Assembly: GCA_041690135.1 (NCBI GenBank)
Contig: JAWLHY010000001.1
Coordinates: 1,344,001 to 1,408,000 of the forward strand
Length of the DNA: 64,000 nt
Source: Armatimonadota bacterium
GTDB taxonomy: Bacteria > Armatimonadota > SYMT01
Direction of reading: 5' to 3'
In this document: positions 12,452 through 17,719 of the stretch, in pieces
How the letters are laid out: each line of letters starts with the position of its first letter
Numbering within the stretch: the stretch's first letter is position 1
Notes under the pieces: generated by a model
Told to the model about the DNA's origin: nothing
What the model saw: the letters and a program-made list of their open reading frames with translations, nothing else
Databases searched by the model: none
Program-made: the position numbers and the translations under genes

Positions 12452-13273
12452 TTACACTTCTCTCCGATCGAAGACCGCCGCCCCGGCCAGCACGATCACG
12501 AGAGCGTAGGCCACCGCGTAGAGGGAAACTCCCGCGGCATACGCCCAGTGATTGACCTGGAAACCGGCAAAGGGGTGGACGATGCTGCCCATGATGTTGA
12601 AGTCGTGGAAGTGCGGCAGCGCGTAATAGAGCGGCCGGGTCAGGATTCCTTCCGACAGCCCCAGGAACGACTGGAAGCTTCCCACGATCCAGATCAGCGC
12701 CGTCACGGCAAAGTTCACCGTGGGGGCGAGGAAGAGCGACAGCGTAGTGGCGATGGCCGTGATGATGAAGAGCTGGAAATAGAGCACAATGATCGCCCGG
12801 AGCACCAGCAAGAACTCGTGCTGACAACGGGCTAACCATTCATTCATCTTGAACGCCGCCGCCGTGGTCTCGATAGCGCTCGTCTGGGGCTTGGCCGCCA
12901 GTACGAACAGGACCAGGATCAGCGCCACGCTCATCAGTCCGACCATAAAGGCCACGGTCATCGCTCCGCCCAGGAACTTACCCAGGAAGAACTCCCACCG
13001 CTGCACGGGCTTGGCGAGGACCGAATAGATCGTCCGCCGTTCCATCTCCGTGGGGATCAGGTAGACTGCGGTGGTAATGGAGATCAGTGCCCCGAAGATC
13101 AGGATGATCGTGAGCTGCGTGGACTTGAAGATCGTGCTCTGCTCGCGCGCGGTGAAGTAGTTCAACAGCAGCGCGAGGGTCAGCATGACGAACGCCAGCA
13201 GCAGGAAGATCAGCAGGACCCGCTTGCGGAGACTGTCGCCAAAGGTGTTGCGTGCAATCACCCAGGTATTCAT
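12452..13273 (-). CDS. ABC-2 type transporter permease (PilI/NosY-like)
   Basis: IPTEMERRTIYSVLAKPVQRWEFFLGKFLG; about 6 TM; C-terminal FDRREV. Confidence 0.88.
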   Translation of the reverse strand: MNTWVIARNTFGDSLRKRVLLIFLLLAFVMLTLALLLNYFTAREQSTIFKSTQLTIILIFGALISITTAVYLIPTEMERRTIYSVLAKPVQRWEFFLGKFLGGAMTVAFMVGLMSVALILVLFVLAAKPQTSAIETTAAAFKMNEWLARCQHEFLLVLRAIIVLYFQLFIITAIATTLSLFLAPTVNFAVTALIWIVGSFQSFLGLSEGILTRPLYYALPHFHDFNIMGSIVHPFAGFQVNHWAYAAGVSLYAVAYALVIVLAGAAVFDRREV

Positions 13274-14229
13274 TAGTCCCTCGTCAGGGTGTTCATCGTG
13301 CCGATGCGGCGATGCGGACCGGCGAGGCCGACGGTTTCAACAAAGATCTCTTCCAGCGACCGCTTCAGCGGCACCACGGAGATAACGCGGCCGCGGGCTC
13401 CCCGGATCACGTCGAGGATGTCGTTGACCAGATTCTCGTCGCTGCAGGTGACGACGATCTTCTCGTTGTCGCTCTTCACGGCGCCCGTCAGTTCGGTGAG
13501 CCTGCCGGTCACCTCGGCCGGTACGCCGGTGGCCGTGATCTCCGTGCGCCCCTCCGCCACCAGTTCATCCACGCGGCCGGCCTTCACCAGCTTGCCGTAG
13601 TTGAGGATGCAGATGCGGTCGCAAACCAGTTCCACATCGGAAAGCTGGTGGCTGCTGAGGAAGACCGTCTTCCCCTGGTCGCGCAGCGATTCGATGAGGT
13701 TGCGGATCTCGATGTGCGCCACGGGATCGAGACCGGAAGTCGGCTCGTCGAAGATCAGCAGCTTGGGATCGTTGATCAGCGCCTGGGCGATCCCGACGCG
13801 CTGCATCATGCCCTTGGAATACTGCTTGAGCTGTTTCGCCTTGTCGTTCCGCAGCCCAACCAGGTCCAGCAGCGAATCCACCCGCTTCGCCCGGTCTTTC
13901 GCCGGGATGCCGAACAGGCGGCCGTAGAAGTCCAGCAGTTCCCCGCCCGTCAGGTGGTCGTAGAAGTAGGGGTTCTCCGGCAGATAGCTGACCAGGCGCC
14001 GCATCTCCTGCGCGCCGGCCGGGTACCCCAGCACCTCGGCCTTCCCGCCATCGGGGAAGATCAAGCCGAGCAGCATCTTGATCGTGGTCGTCTTCCCGGC
14101 CCCGTTGGGCCCGAGGAACCCGAAGATCTCGCCGGTTTCCACCTCGAGGTCCAGGTGATCCACGGCCACTACTTCACCGCGCTGGAAAAATCGCTTGGTG
14201 AGTCCTTCAGCGCGTATTGCTACGGCCAT
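13273..14229 (-). CDS. ABC transporter ATP-binding protein
   Basis: Walker A GPNGAGKT, signature YSKGMMQR, Walker B LLIFDEPTSGLD, H-loop SSH. Confidence 0.95.
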   Translation of the reverse strand: MAVAIRAEGLTKRFFQRGEVVAVDHLDLEVETGEIFGFLGPNGAGKTTTIKMLLGLIFPDGGKAEVLGYPAGAQEMRRLVSYLPENPYFYDHLTGGELLDFYGRLFGIPAKDRAKRVDSLLDLVGLRNDKAKQLKQYSKGMMQRVGIAQALINDPKLLIFDEPTSGLDPVAHIEIRNLIESLRDQGKTVFLSSHQLSDVELVCDRICILNYGKLVKAGRVDELVAEGRTEITATGVPAEVTGRLTELTGAVKSDNEKIVVTCSDENLVNDILDVIRGARGRVISVVPLKRSLEEIFVETVGLAGPHRRIGTMNTLTRD

Positions 14230-14373
14230 GTGGGTAGCGTCCTCCGTATGAATGCGTTGCGACAGCAGCTTGCGGCCTTACAGAGCTGTGTGTAGGAGTG
14301 GGCCTGTGGGCCGGTCGTCAGGATGAGGTTGAAACAAGTGCTCCAGGCAGGCTGCCCTGAACACACCATCACA

Positions 14374-14400
14374 TACGCCCGCCCATTTCCGGGGAGTTCC
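14374..14400 (-). promoter_or_regulatory. Possible ECF-sigma promoter for the ABC operon
   Basis: Minus strand GGAACT-17 nt-CGTA about 150 nt upstream of the start. Confidence 0.25.
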
Positions 14401-14505
14401 GAAGTTTTGCGCTCTCCTTGCGAACGGTGTCGCCCCTGACAGCCTGCTTTGGAGGGTGCTTTGTAGTGGTGATTTTCAAGGAATGAAAAAATTTTCGAAA
14501 TCTAC

Positions 14506-14534
14506 TTGCGCACCATAAGTCCGACTGCTACAAT
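14506..14534 (+). promoter_or_regulatory. Sigma-70 promoter
   Basis: TTGCGC-17 nt-TACAAT with extended -10 TG, preceded by an A/T-rich UP-like tract. Confidence 0.8.
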
Positions 14535-14539
14535 ATGCC

Positions 14540-14610
14540 TGCGTGAAACCTCATTTTCACCTCCTTTCGTAGCGACTGACCTGCCGGGTTAAACCGGCAG
14601 GTTTTTTTTT
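14540..14610 (+). ncRNA. Candidate ~70-nt small RNA or attenuator carrying an anti-Shine-Dalgarno sequence
   Basis: Lies between a promoter and a terminator; 5' hairpin GTGAAA/TTTCAC; contains CACCTCCTTTC. Confidence 0.6.
14579..14610 (+). terminator. Strong intrinsic terminator
   Basis: ACCTGCCGG-GTTAAA-CCGGCAGG followed by T9. Confidence 0.9.
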
Positions 14611-14632
14611 CGCCGGGACCCTATCTATAGAG

Positions 14633-15397
14633 GTGAAACCCAGGATCGGAATAACCAGTGGCGTGCGCCCGGGATGGGCGCCCAAAGGCGAAACCTGGCG
14701 TCCCTACGCCGAGGCGATCGCGCTCGCCGGGGGCGAACCGGTGCATCTCGGCCCGGATCTCCTCGGACGGGAACGCGCGGTACTGTTAGAACTTGAGGGT
14801 GTGCTGTTTTCGGGCGGCAACGACGTGGACCTCGACCTTTATCCCAACCCTCCTGAACTGGGGATGGGGCGGGAAGAAGCGATCCGCCGATTCCGCCTCG
14901 TGCCCGAGCCCGACCGCGACCGTTACGAGCTGGCGCTGCTCCAGGAAGTGCTGGCCCGGGATCTCCCGATCCTGGGAATCTGCCGGGGCTGCCAGGTGAT
15001 GAACATCGGCTTGGGCGGCCGCTTGATTCTCGATATTCCCACCCAGGTGTCTACGCAGATCCGTCACCCCGCCCACGCCGAAGGAGAGGCGCACAGCTCG
15101 TCTCACGATCTCCATATTCAGGACGCAACGGCGCTGGCCGCAGTCCTGAGCCCCCAGGTGTACACGGTCTGCAACAGCCGCCACCACCAGGCGGTGGATC
15201 CCGTGGACTCGCTGCCGAAATGCGTGCGGATTTCCGCTTACTCGCCGGTCGACGGCCTGGTGGAAGCGATCGAGATCACCGGGCGCCGCTGGGCCATCGG
15301 GGTGCAGTGGCATCCCGAACACCCGCGCGACCACGAAGTCCGCACCCGGTACGCTCCTCTTTTCCGCGCCTTTGTCGAGGCCTGCATGGCCTCTTGA
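14633..15397 (+). CDS. Gamma-glutamyl-gamma-aminobutyrate hydrolase family (peptidase C26, class I glutamine amidotransferase)
   Basis: KPRIGIT, SGGNDVD, LGICRGCQ, NSRHHQAV, GVQWHPE. Confidence 0.9.
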   Translation: MKPRIGITSGVRPGWAPKGETWRPYAEAIALAGGEPVHLGPDLLGRERAVLLELEGVLFSGGNDVDLDLYPNPPELGMGREEAIRRFRLVPEPDRDRYELALLQEVLARDLPILGICRGCQVMNIGLGGRLILDIPTQVSTQIRHPAHAEGEAHSSSHDLHIQDATALAAVLSPQVYTVCNSRHHQAVDPVDSLPKCVRISAYSPVDGLVEAIEITGRRWAIGVQWHPEHPRDHEVRTRYAPLFRAFVEACMAS

Positions 15398-15418
15398 ACG
15401 TAGGAGTTCCCACGCACT

Positions 15419-16963
15419 ATGAGCAGTTCTGCCCCCCAGGTCTTGTTTCTCCGGGAAGGTGACGATGTCGCCGTCGCCTGCCGCCCGCTTTCCGCCGGGT
15501 CGGTGGTCGCGGTAAATGGCAGCGAAGTCCAGTTGCGGACGGACGTTCCCGCCGGTCACAAGATCGCCCTGCACCTCGTTCGGGAAGGCGATCCGGTCCG
15601 GAAATACGGCCAGATCATCGGGTTCGCCACTCGCAGCATCGAACCGGGCGACCACGTCCACGTCCAGAACATGGCGGTCAAACCGCTGCAACTGGACTAC
15701 GAGTACTCCACGGCGGTCCCCGAGGTACAGTACGTGCCGGAAGCGGAGCGCCGCACCTTTCAGGGCTTCAAGCGCCCGGATGGCCGCGTGGGCACGCGTA
15801 ACTACCTGGCCGTCGTTTCTACGGTCAACTGTTCCGCCTCTGTGAGCCGCTTCATCGCCGAGCGCTTCCGGGGAGACGCGCTGAAAGAGTTCCCGAACGT
15901 TGATGGTGTGATCGCGGTCAAGCACATGACCGGCTGCGGCATGAATATCAACGGCGAAGACCTGCGCATGCTGGAGCGTACGCTGGCCGGTTATGCGCGG
16001 CACGCCAACGTGGCCGGGTACATCGTGGTGGGCCTGGGCTGCGAGGTCAACCAGGCCGTAAGCATGGTCCAGCACACCAACCTGATCTCCCTCGGCACGC
16101 CGAGCCGGGTTCCCACGGTCGTCTCGATTCAGGAAGAAGGCGGCGTGACGAAGGCCGTCGAACGCGGCATCAAGGAGATCGCGGCGCTCCTCCCCTATGC
16201 GAACGGCTTCACCCGCTCCACCCAGCCCGCCTCGGAGCTCTTCGTGGCCACGAACTGCGGCGGCAGCGACGGCAACTCGGGCGTAACCGCCAACCCGGCC
16301 GTCGGCTGGATGACGGACGAAATGGTCCGGCATGGCGGGACCTCGGTCCTGGCGGAGACCAGCGAGACCTACGGCGCCGAACACCTGCTCACGCGGCGCG
16401 CCGTGAGCCGCGAAGTGGGTGAAAAGCTGGTGGCGTTGATGCGGTGGTGGGAGAAGTACACCTCCATGCACGGCGCCGAGATCGACAACAACCCCTCGCC
16501 GGGCAACAAGGCGGGCGGCCTCACCACCATCTATGAGAAGTCGCTCGGCGCCCTGGCGAAGGGCGGCACGAGCCCGCTGGTGGACGTGCTCCAGTTCGCC
16601 GAACCGATCCGCAAGCGTGGCTTCCTCTTCATGGACACGCCGGGACACGATCCCGTCTCCATCACCGGGCTGGTGGCCGGTGGCTGCAACGTGGTGGTCT
16701 TCACCACGGGGCGCGGCTCCGTGTTCGGCTGCAAGCCGGCGCCGAGCATCAAAGTGGCCACGAACACTCGCCTGTTCGAGCATATGAACGACGACATGGA
16801 CATCAACGCCGGCGTGATCCTGGAAGGGGCCTCGGTGCCGGACGTGGGTCGCGTCCTCTTCGAGAAGATCCTCTCCGTGGCCAGCGGCGAGCGCACGAAG
16901 AGCGAACTGAGCGGAATCGGAGACGAAGAGTTCGTGCCGTGGATGACCGGCGCGGTGCTGTAA
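15419..16963 (+). CDS. uxaA: Altronate/galactarate dehydratase family (SAF + UxaA domain)
   Basis: VPAGHKIAL, KYGQIIG, HVHVQN, GRVGTRNY, CGGSDGNSG, NPSPGNKAGGLTTIYEKSLG. Confidence 0.9.
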   Translation: MSSSAPQVLFLREGDDVAVACRPLSAGSVVAVNGSEVQLRTDVPAGHKIALHLVREGDPVRKYGQIIGFATRSIEPGDHVHVQNMAVKPLQLDYEYSTAVPEVQYVPEAERRTFQGFKRPDGRVGTRNYLAVVSTVNCSASVSRFIAERFRGDALKEFPNVDGVIAVKHMTGCGMNINGEDLRMLERTLAGYARHANVAGYIVVGLGCEVNQAVSMVQHTNLISLGTPSRVPTVVSIQEEGGVTKAVERGIKEIAALLPYANGFTRSTQPASELFVATNCGGSDGNSGVTANPAVGWMTDEMVRHGGTSVLAETSETYGAEHLLTRRAVSREVGEKLVALMRWWEKYTSMHGAEIDNNPSPGNKAGGLTTIYEKSLGALAKGGTSPLVDVLQFAEPIRKRGFLFMDTPGHDPVSITGLVAGGCNVVVFTTGRGSVFGCKPAPSIKVATNTRLFEHMNDDMDINAGVILEGASVPDVGRVLFEKILSVASGERTKSELSGIGDEEFVPWMTGAVL

Positions 16964-16997
16964 CTGCTTGCACCAGAGCGCCCCACCGCGTACTTTC

Positions 16998-17035
16998 GAA
17001 GCGGGGGCGGATGGGTACCCATCCGCCCCCGCTTC
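16998..17035. terminator. Perfect 38-bp palindrome after uxaA (terminator or stabilising hairpin)
   Basis: GAAGCGGGGGCGGATGGGTACCCATCCGCCCCCGCTTC; only a weak U-tail. Confidence 0.7.
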
Positions 17036-17074
17036 TTGCGGGTGATTGCGATCGAATCGGACAGGAGCGGGCCA

Positions 17075-17719
17075 ATGGAGATCGAAGAGAGGCTGGCACT
17101 CGTGGAGGCGCGTCTGGCGCGCTCGGAGCAGCGAGAGGCACGTTACCGGCGTACCGCCCTGGCTTCGCTGGCTCTGGTGCTGGGGGTGGGTTTCCTCGCG
17201 CTGGCTAGGCCCGCGGAAACGGACAAGGTGGGGACCGAACTGAAGGGCCCGGTCAGCATCGTGGACAAAGACGGGCGGACCATCTTCGAGATGGGCTCCG
17301 GGAACGGAATGCCCTACCTCCTGATGTTGAACGACCAGCAGGAACTGGTGGCGCGGATCGGCGGGTCTACCGAGACGGGCGGCGGCTTCCTCGACCTGCT
17401 CCACTCGACGGGGCGCGAGGGTCTCAAGCTGGCGCTGGATGATTACGGCGGGTCCGTGCGGACCTTCGACAAGAAGCGGCGACCCCGCGTGACCATCGAC
17501 GGGGACCGTCACGGTGGGCGGGTAGTCCTCTCCGATACTGAAGGCTCCTTCAAAGGCTGGTTCCACATGCGGGAACGGGGCGGCGTGCTGCTATTGAGCG
17601 GCAACGAACTGAAGAATACCGCCTACCTGGGCCCCGCGGAAGACGACGCGGGACAGTTAATTCTCTACACCCCCCAGGACCAGAAGGGGAACCGGATCGC
17701 CCCCGAGAAGAAGCAGTAG
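17075..17719 (+). CDS. Hypothetical protein: coiled coil, TM helix and Gly-rich beta repeats
   Basis: MEIEERLALVEARL, hydrophobic helix, then ~22-aa GG-x-L repeats; RBS AGGAG. Confidence 0.7.
   Translation: MEIEERLALVEARLARSEQREARYRRTALASLALVLGVGFLALARPAETDKVGTELKGPVSIVDKDGRTIFEMGSGNGMPYLLMLNDQQELVARIGGSTETGGGFLDLLHSTGREGLKLALDDYGGSVRTFDKKRRPRVTIDGDRHGGRVVLSDTEGSFKGWFHMRERGGVLLLSGNELKNTAYLGPAEDDAGQLILYTPQDQKGNRIAPEKKQ

Follow-up and report, generated by a model that had tools for sequence, protein, structure and literature searches.

The locus and the predicted small RNA gene

The stretch of DNA considered here, called the window, covers 64,000 nucleotides (nt) of an Armatimonadota bacterium (contig JAWLHY010000001.1, positions 1,344,001 to 1,408,000 of the forward strand). 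The host genome, labelled G000, is a 9.1-Mb draft with 65% G+C. Within the window, a 403-nt gap separates a leftward ABC-2 exporter operon from a rightward Peptidase_C26 gene. Judged from sequence comparison, this gap contains a stand-alone, non-coding small RNA (sRNA) gene of about 70 nt, read from the plus strand and carrying its own sigma-70-type promoter (Table 1). The predicted RNA includes a copy of the 3' tail of 16S ribosomal RNA (rRNA), the sequence that pairs with Shine-Dalgarno (SD) motifs.

Table 1. Features of the sRNA gene and of its surroundings (positions in the window)
Feature	Position	Strand	Remarks
Divergent ABC-2 exporter operon	12452..14229	-	ATPase 13273-14229, permease 12452-13273
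Promoter of the divergent ABC operon, GGAAC-N18-CGTAT	14373..14400	-	about 145 nt upstream of the ATPase start
A/T-rich tract AAAAAATTTT	14486..14495	+	5' of the -35 box; possible, weak UP-like element
-35 box TTGCGC	14506..14511	+	TTG the same in 13/13 copies, at a fixed 17 nt from the -10 box
Extended -10 box TGcTACAAT	14526..14534	+	TG 14526-27, TACAAT 14529-34; TAnnnT in 13/13 copies, TG in 10/13
Predicted sRNA transcript, about 70 nt	14541..14611	+	predicted ends; 3' end within the U-tract
34-nt 5' domain GCGUGAAACCUCAUUUUCACCUCCUUUCGUAGCG	14541..14574	+	2 substitutions among 13 copies
5' hairpin	14543..14560	+	GUGAAA 14543-48 with UUUCAC 14555-60; minimum free energy and ensemble predictions
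Hairpin loop CCUCAU	14549-14554	+	second CCUC motif
CATTTTCACCTCCTTTC	14552-68	+	read at this place in the sequence
UCACCUCCUUUC, 12-nt copy of the 16S 3' tail (anti-SD)	14557..14568	+	matches the tails of G027 and G040
Single-stranded linker	14569..14577	+	conserved GUAGCG, then variable bases; GUAGCG in 12/13 copies, GCAGCG in L042
Intrinsic terminator	14578..14610	+	10-pair stem 14578-14603 with 6-nt loop; T9 14602-14610
Peptidase_C26 / class-I glutamine amidotransferase gene	14633..15397	+	Pfam 2.3e-43; GTG start at 14633
Altronate/galactarate-dehydratase gene	15419-16963	+	follows the C26 gene

The promoter is not listed by a consensus promoter scan because its -35 box fits the consensus at just 3 of 6 positions, so that the call rests on the comparison of the copies described below. 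In all 13 of them, the TTG, the 17-nt spacing and the TAnnnT are invariant, with the TG at -15/-14 found in 10, and the remainder of the promoter alignment has diverged (mean column identity of 59%). An A-rich/T-rich tract lies upstream in most group-1 copies, in a poorly aligned region. The 5' end of the sRNA was placed from its distance to the -10 box and from the onset of invariance, which begins 7 nt past this box; conservation then stops at the terminator. The plus strand was assigned because of the promoter, of the U-tract after the stem and of this onset of invariance.

In the predicted fold of the 72-nt RNA, an open linker of 17 nt separates a 5' hairpin from the terminator; the free energy is -24.9 kcal/mol vs -13.9 +/- 2.8 for 200 shuffled sequences, none of which equals it (z -3.99). 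The terminator stem runs into the T9. The 5' hairpin by itself is weak (-3.3 kcal/mol) and is predicted to hold the UUUCAC. The CCUCAU loop has a predicted probability of about 1.0 of being unpaired, and nucleotides 21-33 have values of 0.68-0.98. Thus, the original prediction, made from the letters of the window, is borne out for the promoter with its extended TG, for the 5' hairpin pairing GTGAAA with TTTCAC, and for a core exposed as an anti-SD copy of the 16S tail. Two further claims stand in part. The terminator has its stem and its T9, but what had been described as a 9-bp GC stem comprises 10 pairs, 7 of them G-C. The core is indeed complementary to a complete SD-spacer-AUG arrangement, except that the anti-AUG is lost in one of the 13 copies (CAG in L036).

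Conservation in relatives and a diverged variant

BLAST comparison of positions 14230-14700 with 41 genomes, G000 included, gives significant matches in two genomes of the same family but of other genera, G004 (5.5e-14) and G005 (1.2e-14). In both, the similarity is confined to positions 14517-14617 of the window, i.e., from the -10 box to the terminator. A 32-nt pattern of the core, searched with up to 3 mismatches in 401 genomes of the phylum, is found in three of them, and in 3 of the 7 genomes of the host's own family. Among species-representative genomes other than the host's, an exact 28-mer occurs in just the G004 and G005 species. A metagenome scan in which the loop was left free yielded 14 stretches, 10 of them with the full architecture; L032, L034, L040 and L043, devoid of promoter and terminator, were discarded as chance matches. 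The comparison set is therefore made of 13 copies, 12 of them full-length, from G000, G004, G005 and the 10 metagenome contigs.

Across these copies, the 34-nt 5' domain carries two substitutions and no more, U14G in the loop of L036 and U30C in L042, whereas the protein of the neighbouring ABC ATPase is 79-90% identical. The terminator behaves differently from the 5' domain: in the 12 full-length copies, 6 of its 10 pairs show compensatory changes and 98.3% of its cells are paired (98.9% overall, vs 37-50% when the partner is slid), and none of 500 shuffles matches the covariation score. The length of the U-tail varies from 5 to 9. All 6 pairs of the 5' hairpin are invariant, with zero covariation, and are therefore uninformative on pairing, either way. 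The putative unit is thus conserved in 12 further loci, far beyond chance, and the conservation and covariation that the original prediction called for are found in the anti-SD core and in the terminator, respectively.

The genes that follow the element differ from locus to locus. Where the next gene can be judged (10 loci), it encodes a C26 protein in three cases (the window, L031 and L039), a GCS2 protein in three, and a pilin-like, a transposase-like (under the Pfam cut-off), an M55 and one unknown protein in the others. Five of these 10 next genes are convergent, namely the three GCS2, the pilin-like and the transposase-like genes. The element is regarded as a stand-alone gene because of this variety and of these convergent arrangements; the same conclusion had been drawn from the window, and the conservation running from 7 nt past the -10 box to the terminator agrees with it. 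The element thus displays part of the general features of a trans-acting sRNA, with its own promoter and terminator, no conserved ORF and a conservation independent of the flanking genes.

A covariance model built from the 12 full-length copies and searched over 151 genomes of the phylum scores 84-93 bits in G000, G004 and G005. It also retrieves a diverged variant in G035 and G060 (42 and 36 bits, respectively), both members of a different family, f17, with 5 genomes in all. Both variants retain GCGUGAAgCCUC and the 14-nt UUUCACCUCCUUUC, as well as the terminator. Their hairpin still has 6 pairs, with an A-U replaced by G.U, its loop is 15-19 nt long and CU-rich, and the 3' linker reads CUUUC or CUUUU instead of GUAGCG. 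The 12-nt copy of the 16S tail therefore survives in spite of the changed loop length and 3' linker. No Rfam match was obtained for the two variants at E<=0.01.

The variants (L054 1501-1582, minus strand; L055 1501-1590, plus strand) adjoin methanol/corrinoid methyltransferase genes and not ABC or C26 genes. The neighbour in G035 is a divergent MtaB gene, and in G060 a gene for a fusion of URO-D and B12-binding domains ends 35 nt upstream. Covariance-model matches of 30 bits or less in other families were rejected as copies of this sRNA, being terminators, antisense ribosome-binding sites (RBSs) or another RNA. Indeed, the weak matches L056 and L060 are antisense RBSs followed by terminators, and the one in G026 is a different, sigma-54-type sRNA. 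In this last genome, which belongs to another family of the phylum, contig C71 bears three tandem units of about 70 nt (L059 1171-1241, 1368-1439 and 1501-1570), each preceded by a sigma-54-type TGGCACG-N4-TTGCA box and composed of a 5' hairpin, a strand reading CUCCUUCC and a terminator. They are a separate candidate array of anti-SD sRNAs, for which no Rfam match was found at E<=0.01.

The 16S tail copy and possible modes of action

The 16S rRNA ends in GGAUCACCUCCUUUCUA in two complete genomes of the phylum, G027 and G040, and UCACCUCCUUUC is identical to these tails at 12 of 12 bases; it is therefore a 12-nt copy of the tail. The 16S genes of G000, G004 and G005 are unassembled, so the identity to the host's own tail is deduced from these relatives. 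As DNA, the 12-mer TCACCTCCTTTC has four occurrences when both strands of the 9.1 Mb are counted. The three occurrences outside the sRNA gene are at unrelated places, two of them being the opposite strand of SD-like sites. The sRNA shares the 12 nt with the 16S tail but differs from it as a predicted independent transcript of 70 nt, in which UU, and not GA, stands in front of the copy and in which helix 45 is missing. Complementarity between the sRNA and 16S rRNA does not exceed runs of 8-10 nt, and the 16S genes of G027 and G040 themselves contain no such run.

A scan of the region with Rfam 15 (E<=10) brings no family to its gathering score, in agreement with the earlier statement that the RNA belongs to no recognised family. 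The best overlaps are with sroD (18.9 bits for a gathering score of 50), STnc400 (16.0/80), mmgR (15.6/41) and ncS16 (15.5/48). The MmgR/suhB family (RF00519) likewise groups small, terminator-ended RNAs and aligns weakly over the full length, but membership was rejected at 15.6 bits, E 3.5. At gathering scores, the whole window contains just a tRNA and an Acido-Lenti-1 RNA, both elsewhere; the latter (RF01687, 19389-19433, minus strand) scores 37.9 bits vs 37 for gathering and lies in a phylum outside those of the family's name. In Gram-positive bacteria, C-rich-seed sRNAs such as RoxS/RsaE and 6C use exposed C-rich motifs to pair with the G-rich SD regions of several messenger RNAs (mRNAs). 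They carry CCCC or UCCC motifs, whereas the Armatimonadota sRNA is CU-rich, identical to the tail and without Rfam match, and is also set apart by its architecture of 5' hairpin, linker and terminator.

The closest parallel is offered by the cuckoo/alpha-r14 sRNAs of Alphaproteobacteria, among which CcsR/RSs0680 and NfeR1. These RNAs are reported to have an ultraconserved, unpaired anti-SD motif, which is all that is conserved of their sequence, and stems that vary by compensatory change, and they are predicted to occlude RBSs, one member being reported as Hfq-bound (PMC4615179, PMC10746234). The candidate targets of NfeR1 are mostly mRNAs of ABC transporters (PMC4615179, PMC10746234). As far as these descriptions go, the likeness lies in a small stand-alone sRNA with an unpaired anti-SD motif. 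The differences lie in the phylum and in the arrangement: cuckoo/alpha-r14 RNAs are described with 2-4 adjacent hairpins, each with CCUCCUCCC in its loop (PMC4615179), whereas the Armatimonadota sRNA has a single CCUC loop and a single-stranded UCACCUCCUUUC prolonged by a sequence complementary to a spacer and AUG. Compared with that description, the present RNA has one 5' hairpin, with CCUCAU as its loop, and 14541-14611 contains no CCUCCUCCC.

With moderate confidence, we favour a trans-acting base-pairing sRNA that covers the RBSs of mRNAs in the manner of cuckoo/alpha-r14. What the comparison shows is a conserved gene unit, covariation in its terminator and a motif that is predicted to be accessible; to these, this reading would add pairing with mRNAs, repression and a dependence on Hfq. 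The seed is predicted to be accessible and is complementary to SD regions in general. The short 5' hairpin would present CCUC in its loop and leave the CUCCUUUCGUAGCG stretch single-stranded; the exposed strand, containing CCUCC, would nucleate on the SD regions of mRNAs in trans. Pairing could then extend into the weak 5' hairpin, up to GAAAGGAGGUGAAA(AUG). By covering the RBS, such a duplex would lower translation initiation and, secondarily, mRNA stability. Hfq, which is encoded in the genome (91 bits), probably assists. A stem followed by a U-tail of at least 6 is the usual Hfq-binding 3' end.

By a rough count, about 170 RBS-like sites of the genome offer at least 8 contiguous complementary bases, provided that these include GGAGG and precede a start codon with an open reading frame (ORF) of at least 80 aa. 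A seeded genome-wide ranking by RNAduplex was swamped by GC-rich noise and set aside, and a BLAST search of the host genome with the locus as query gives the self-match only. The sole orthologous candidate common to G000, G004 and G005 is rpsF, encoding bS6. Its RBS UCCGAAGGGAGGUGA forms 14-17 consecutive pairs with the sRNA (-26 to -29 kcal/mol), compared with 12 pairs and about -21 kcal/mol with the 16S tail, the flanks of the sRNA adding pairs.

The 5' leader of rpsF (G000:C3 ~273500-273605; L076; L102-L104) is in itself strongly conserved across the family. It follows the pattern CCCUGCCCC...GGGGCUGCCC...GGGU.UCCGAAGGGAGGUGA, hairpin-like with an unusually long SD at its end, and is possibly an autoregulatory leader of a ribosomal protein; at E<=0.01, Rfam gives nothing for the leaders of L076 and L104. 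The mRNA of the divergent ABC operon was also considered as a target and rejected, as its SD ACGGAGGAC offers, from alignment reading, just the 5-bp GGAGG core and as G001, G003 and G006 carry the orthologous operon but not the sRNA.

Several observations weigh against regulation by pairing with selected mRNAs. No specific target was found in the genome, where the longest complementary run outside the locus is 14 nt. With up to 3 mismatches allowed, sites for a 16-nt target word show no enrichment relative to a control with the backwards pattern (25 vs 51 in G000, 11 vs 33 in G004 and 28 vs 32 in G005). The best RBS matches of G000, preceding genes for a 782-aa protein and a 525-aa protein of a phosphodiesterase family, were rejected as conserved targets since orthologues of both are lacking from G004 and G005 at a threshold of E<=1e-30. 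The rpsF RBS is the same in G001 and G006, which lack the sRNA, and has no match in the variant genomes G035 and G060; rpsF is therefore a weak candidate target. The distribution is patchy, the core being present in 3/7 genomes of its family and 3/401 of the phylum, and the variant in 2/5 of family f17. The block of 34 nt that is invariant across genera exceeds the 6-10 nt that a seed needs, which hints at an additional or different constraint. Finally, transcription and both ends of the transcript are what we infer from the DNA.

Part of these observations would also suit a decoy of the 16S 3' tail. As such, the sRNA would titrate a factor recognising the tail or, at high copy, compete globally with 30S subunits for SDs. 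The titrated factor could be the assembly GTPase Era, a nuclease maturing the 3' end, or a toxin cleaving the anti-SD, for example. In favour of this, Era is reported to recognise GAUCACCUCC (Tu et al. 2011, cited in PMC10582724), and toxins that cut the anti-SD have been reported (PMC12274833, PMC12620021). The identity of 12/12 bases to the 16S tails of the phylum is in line with a decoy, as are the invariance of 34 nt beyond the needs of a seed and the lack of enrichment of extended target sites. The retention of the 14-nt UUUCACCUCCUUUC in the variants is as well, even though other CCUCC seeds would pair with SDs. However, an optimal anti-SD seed necessarily copies the tail, by definition, and identity alone therefore cannot separate a decoy from a seed. 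In the sRNA, the GA of GAUCACCUCC reads UU, and helix 45 is absent. Moreover, a gene for Era, a nuclease or a toxin is linked to the element in no locus. A decoy is thus considered unlikely, and it is the best placed of the alternatives.

Slightly less probable again is that the RNA serves another role through its structure or by binding a protein, e.g., as an Hfq sponge or as a ligand of some other RNA-binding protein, the complementarity to SDs being incidental. That the entire 34 nt is invariant, and not CCUCC alone, would be explained in this way, and no target was established in the searches made. Still, scant structure is predicted beyond the 6-bp hairpin, and the variants retain precisely the anti-SD strand. 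CsrA is a poor partner, as no gene for it was found in the genome and as the sRNA is without GGA motifs for it.

Neighbouring genes, local roles and meaning

The divergent operon (ABC_tran 2.3e-28, ABC2_membrane_2 2e-09 in Pfam) encodes a DrrA/GldA-like exporter, with scores under the equivalog cut-offs. Its ATPase gene is divergent from the sRNA, 257-364 nt off, in 9/13 loci, 2 of the remaining 4 being too short upstream. In G001, G003 and G006, the orthologous operon (75-80% identity) has no sRNA nearby, the best covariance-model score with filters off being 9 bits. The promoter boxes of the operon, ATACGCC and AGTTCC, are invariant in 9/9 aligned intergenic regions, and the motif is also found upstream of the orthologous operon in the three relatives devoid of the sRNA. 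We take this GGAAC-N18-CGTAT motif to be an extracytoplasmic function (ECF) sigma-like promoter. On the other side, a 926-codon open frame extends over 14786-17566 on the minus strand, opposite the C26 and dehydratase genes. Both of these genes have strong Pfam support, and the frame is most probably a spurious ORF of high-G+C DNA.

The position of the C26 gene raises the question of a cis-acting leader or attenuator, in which the promoter would drive C26-uxaA while the terminator and the anti-SD strand would control read-through or mask the start. The distance from the U-tract of the terminator to the C26 GTG is 21 nt in the host genome, and no other plus-strand promoter-like site is listed in 13800-15200, so that read-through may feed C26 in this genome. 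The 9-nt pairing between UUUCACCUC (14555-63) and GAGGUGAAA (14630-38), pointed out in the original prediction, is present in the window and covers the start codon; indeed, GAGGTGAAA at 14630-38 spans the C26 GTG. L031 and L039 likewise have C26 as the immediate next gene. There, however, the pairing is missing, and the C26 gene of L039 has an ordinary SD, GGGGAGGA. In L031, the apparent ATG of C26 is located 5 nt past the U-tract, about 70-85 nt after the sRNA start, and has no SD; as this start abuts the hairpin, translation would be from a read-through transcript.

A cis-acting role as the general function of the element, as had been proposed for an amidohydrolase-uxaA operon, is not supported. 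C26 lies downstream in just 3/13 loci, half of the judgeable next genes are convergent, and the pairing over the start is unconserved. The element does not keep a constant, co-oriented position upstream of a gene, and an invariant leader is not expected while its gene changes. A leader is accordingly rated as improbable, and a local, attenuator-like read-through role feeding C26 may exist in the host genome only.

Far less probable than any of these readings is a tiny ORF on the minus strand whose translation would start in the conserved block, e.g., a leader peptide of the ABC-2/DrrA-like exporter encoded downstream on the same strand. A perfect GGAGG, a 5-nt spacer and an ATG do open a frame beginning MRFHA, five codons that are kept in 12/13 copies. 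Yet L036 has CTG for ATG, the length of the frame ranges from 8 to more than 50 codons, with 3 to more than 45 variable ones after MRFHA, similarity past codon 5 mirrors the plus-strand -10 box, and the U-tract of the terminator is on the plus strand. As to the ABC operon, a conserved promoter of its own lies between the gene and the mini-ORF, and the operon is missing or not visible in four loci and exists without the element in G001, G003 and G006. The frame thus lacks the conserved start, length and peptide of a small protein or leader peptide.

Returning to the favoured reading of a trans-acting, RBS-covering sRNA, the RNA itself, from soil Armatimonadota, was previously uncatalogued, and covering of the RBS is a known mode of regulation. 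In one full-text literature search, no description of a regulatory RNA in Armatimonadota was found among the papers listed. The element provides this phylum with a delimited sRNA family, consisting of 13 copies and 2 variants and accompanied by a covariance model. If it is merely another anti-SD sRNA, the result is a useful annotation without surprise. If it were a decoy abundant enough to compete with 30S subunits, it would be an RNA throttle of SD-dependent initiation acting genome-wide, with a preference for messages with a long SD such as rpsF. As its seed copies the 16S tail exactly and over an unusual length, the sRNA offers a natural case for weighing the regulation of a few genes against a broad throttling of SD-dependent translation.

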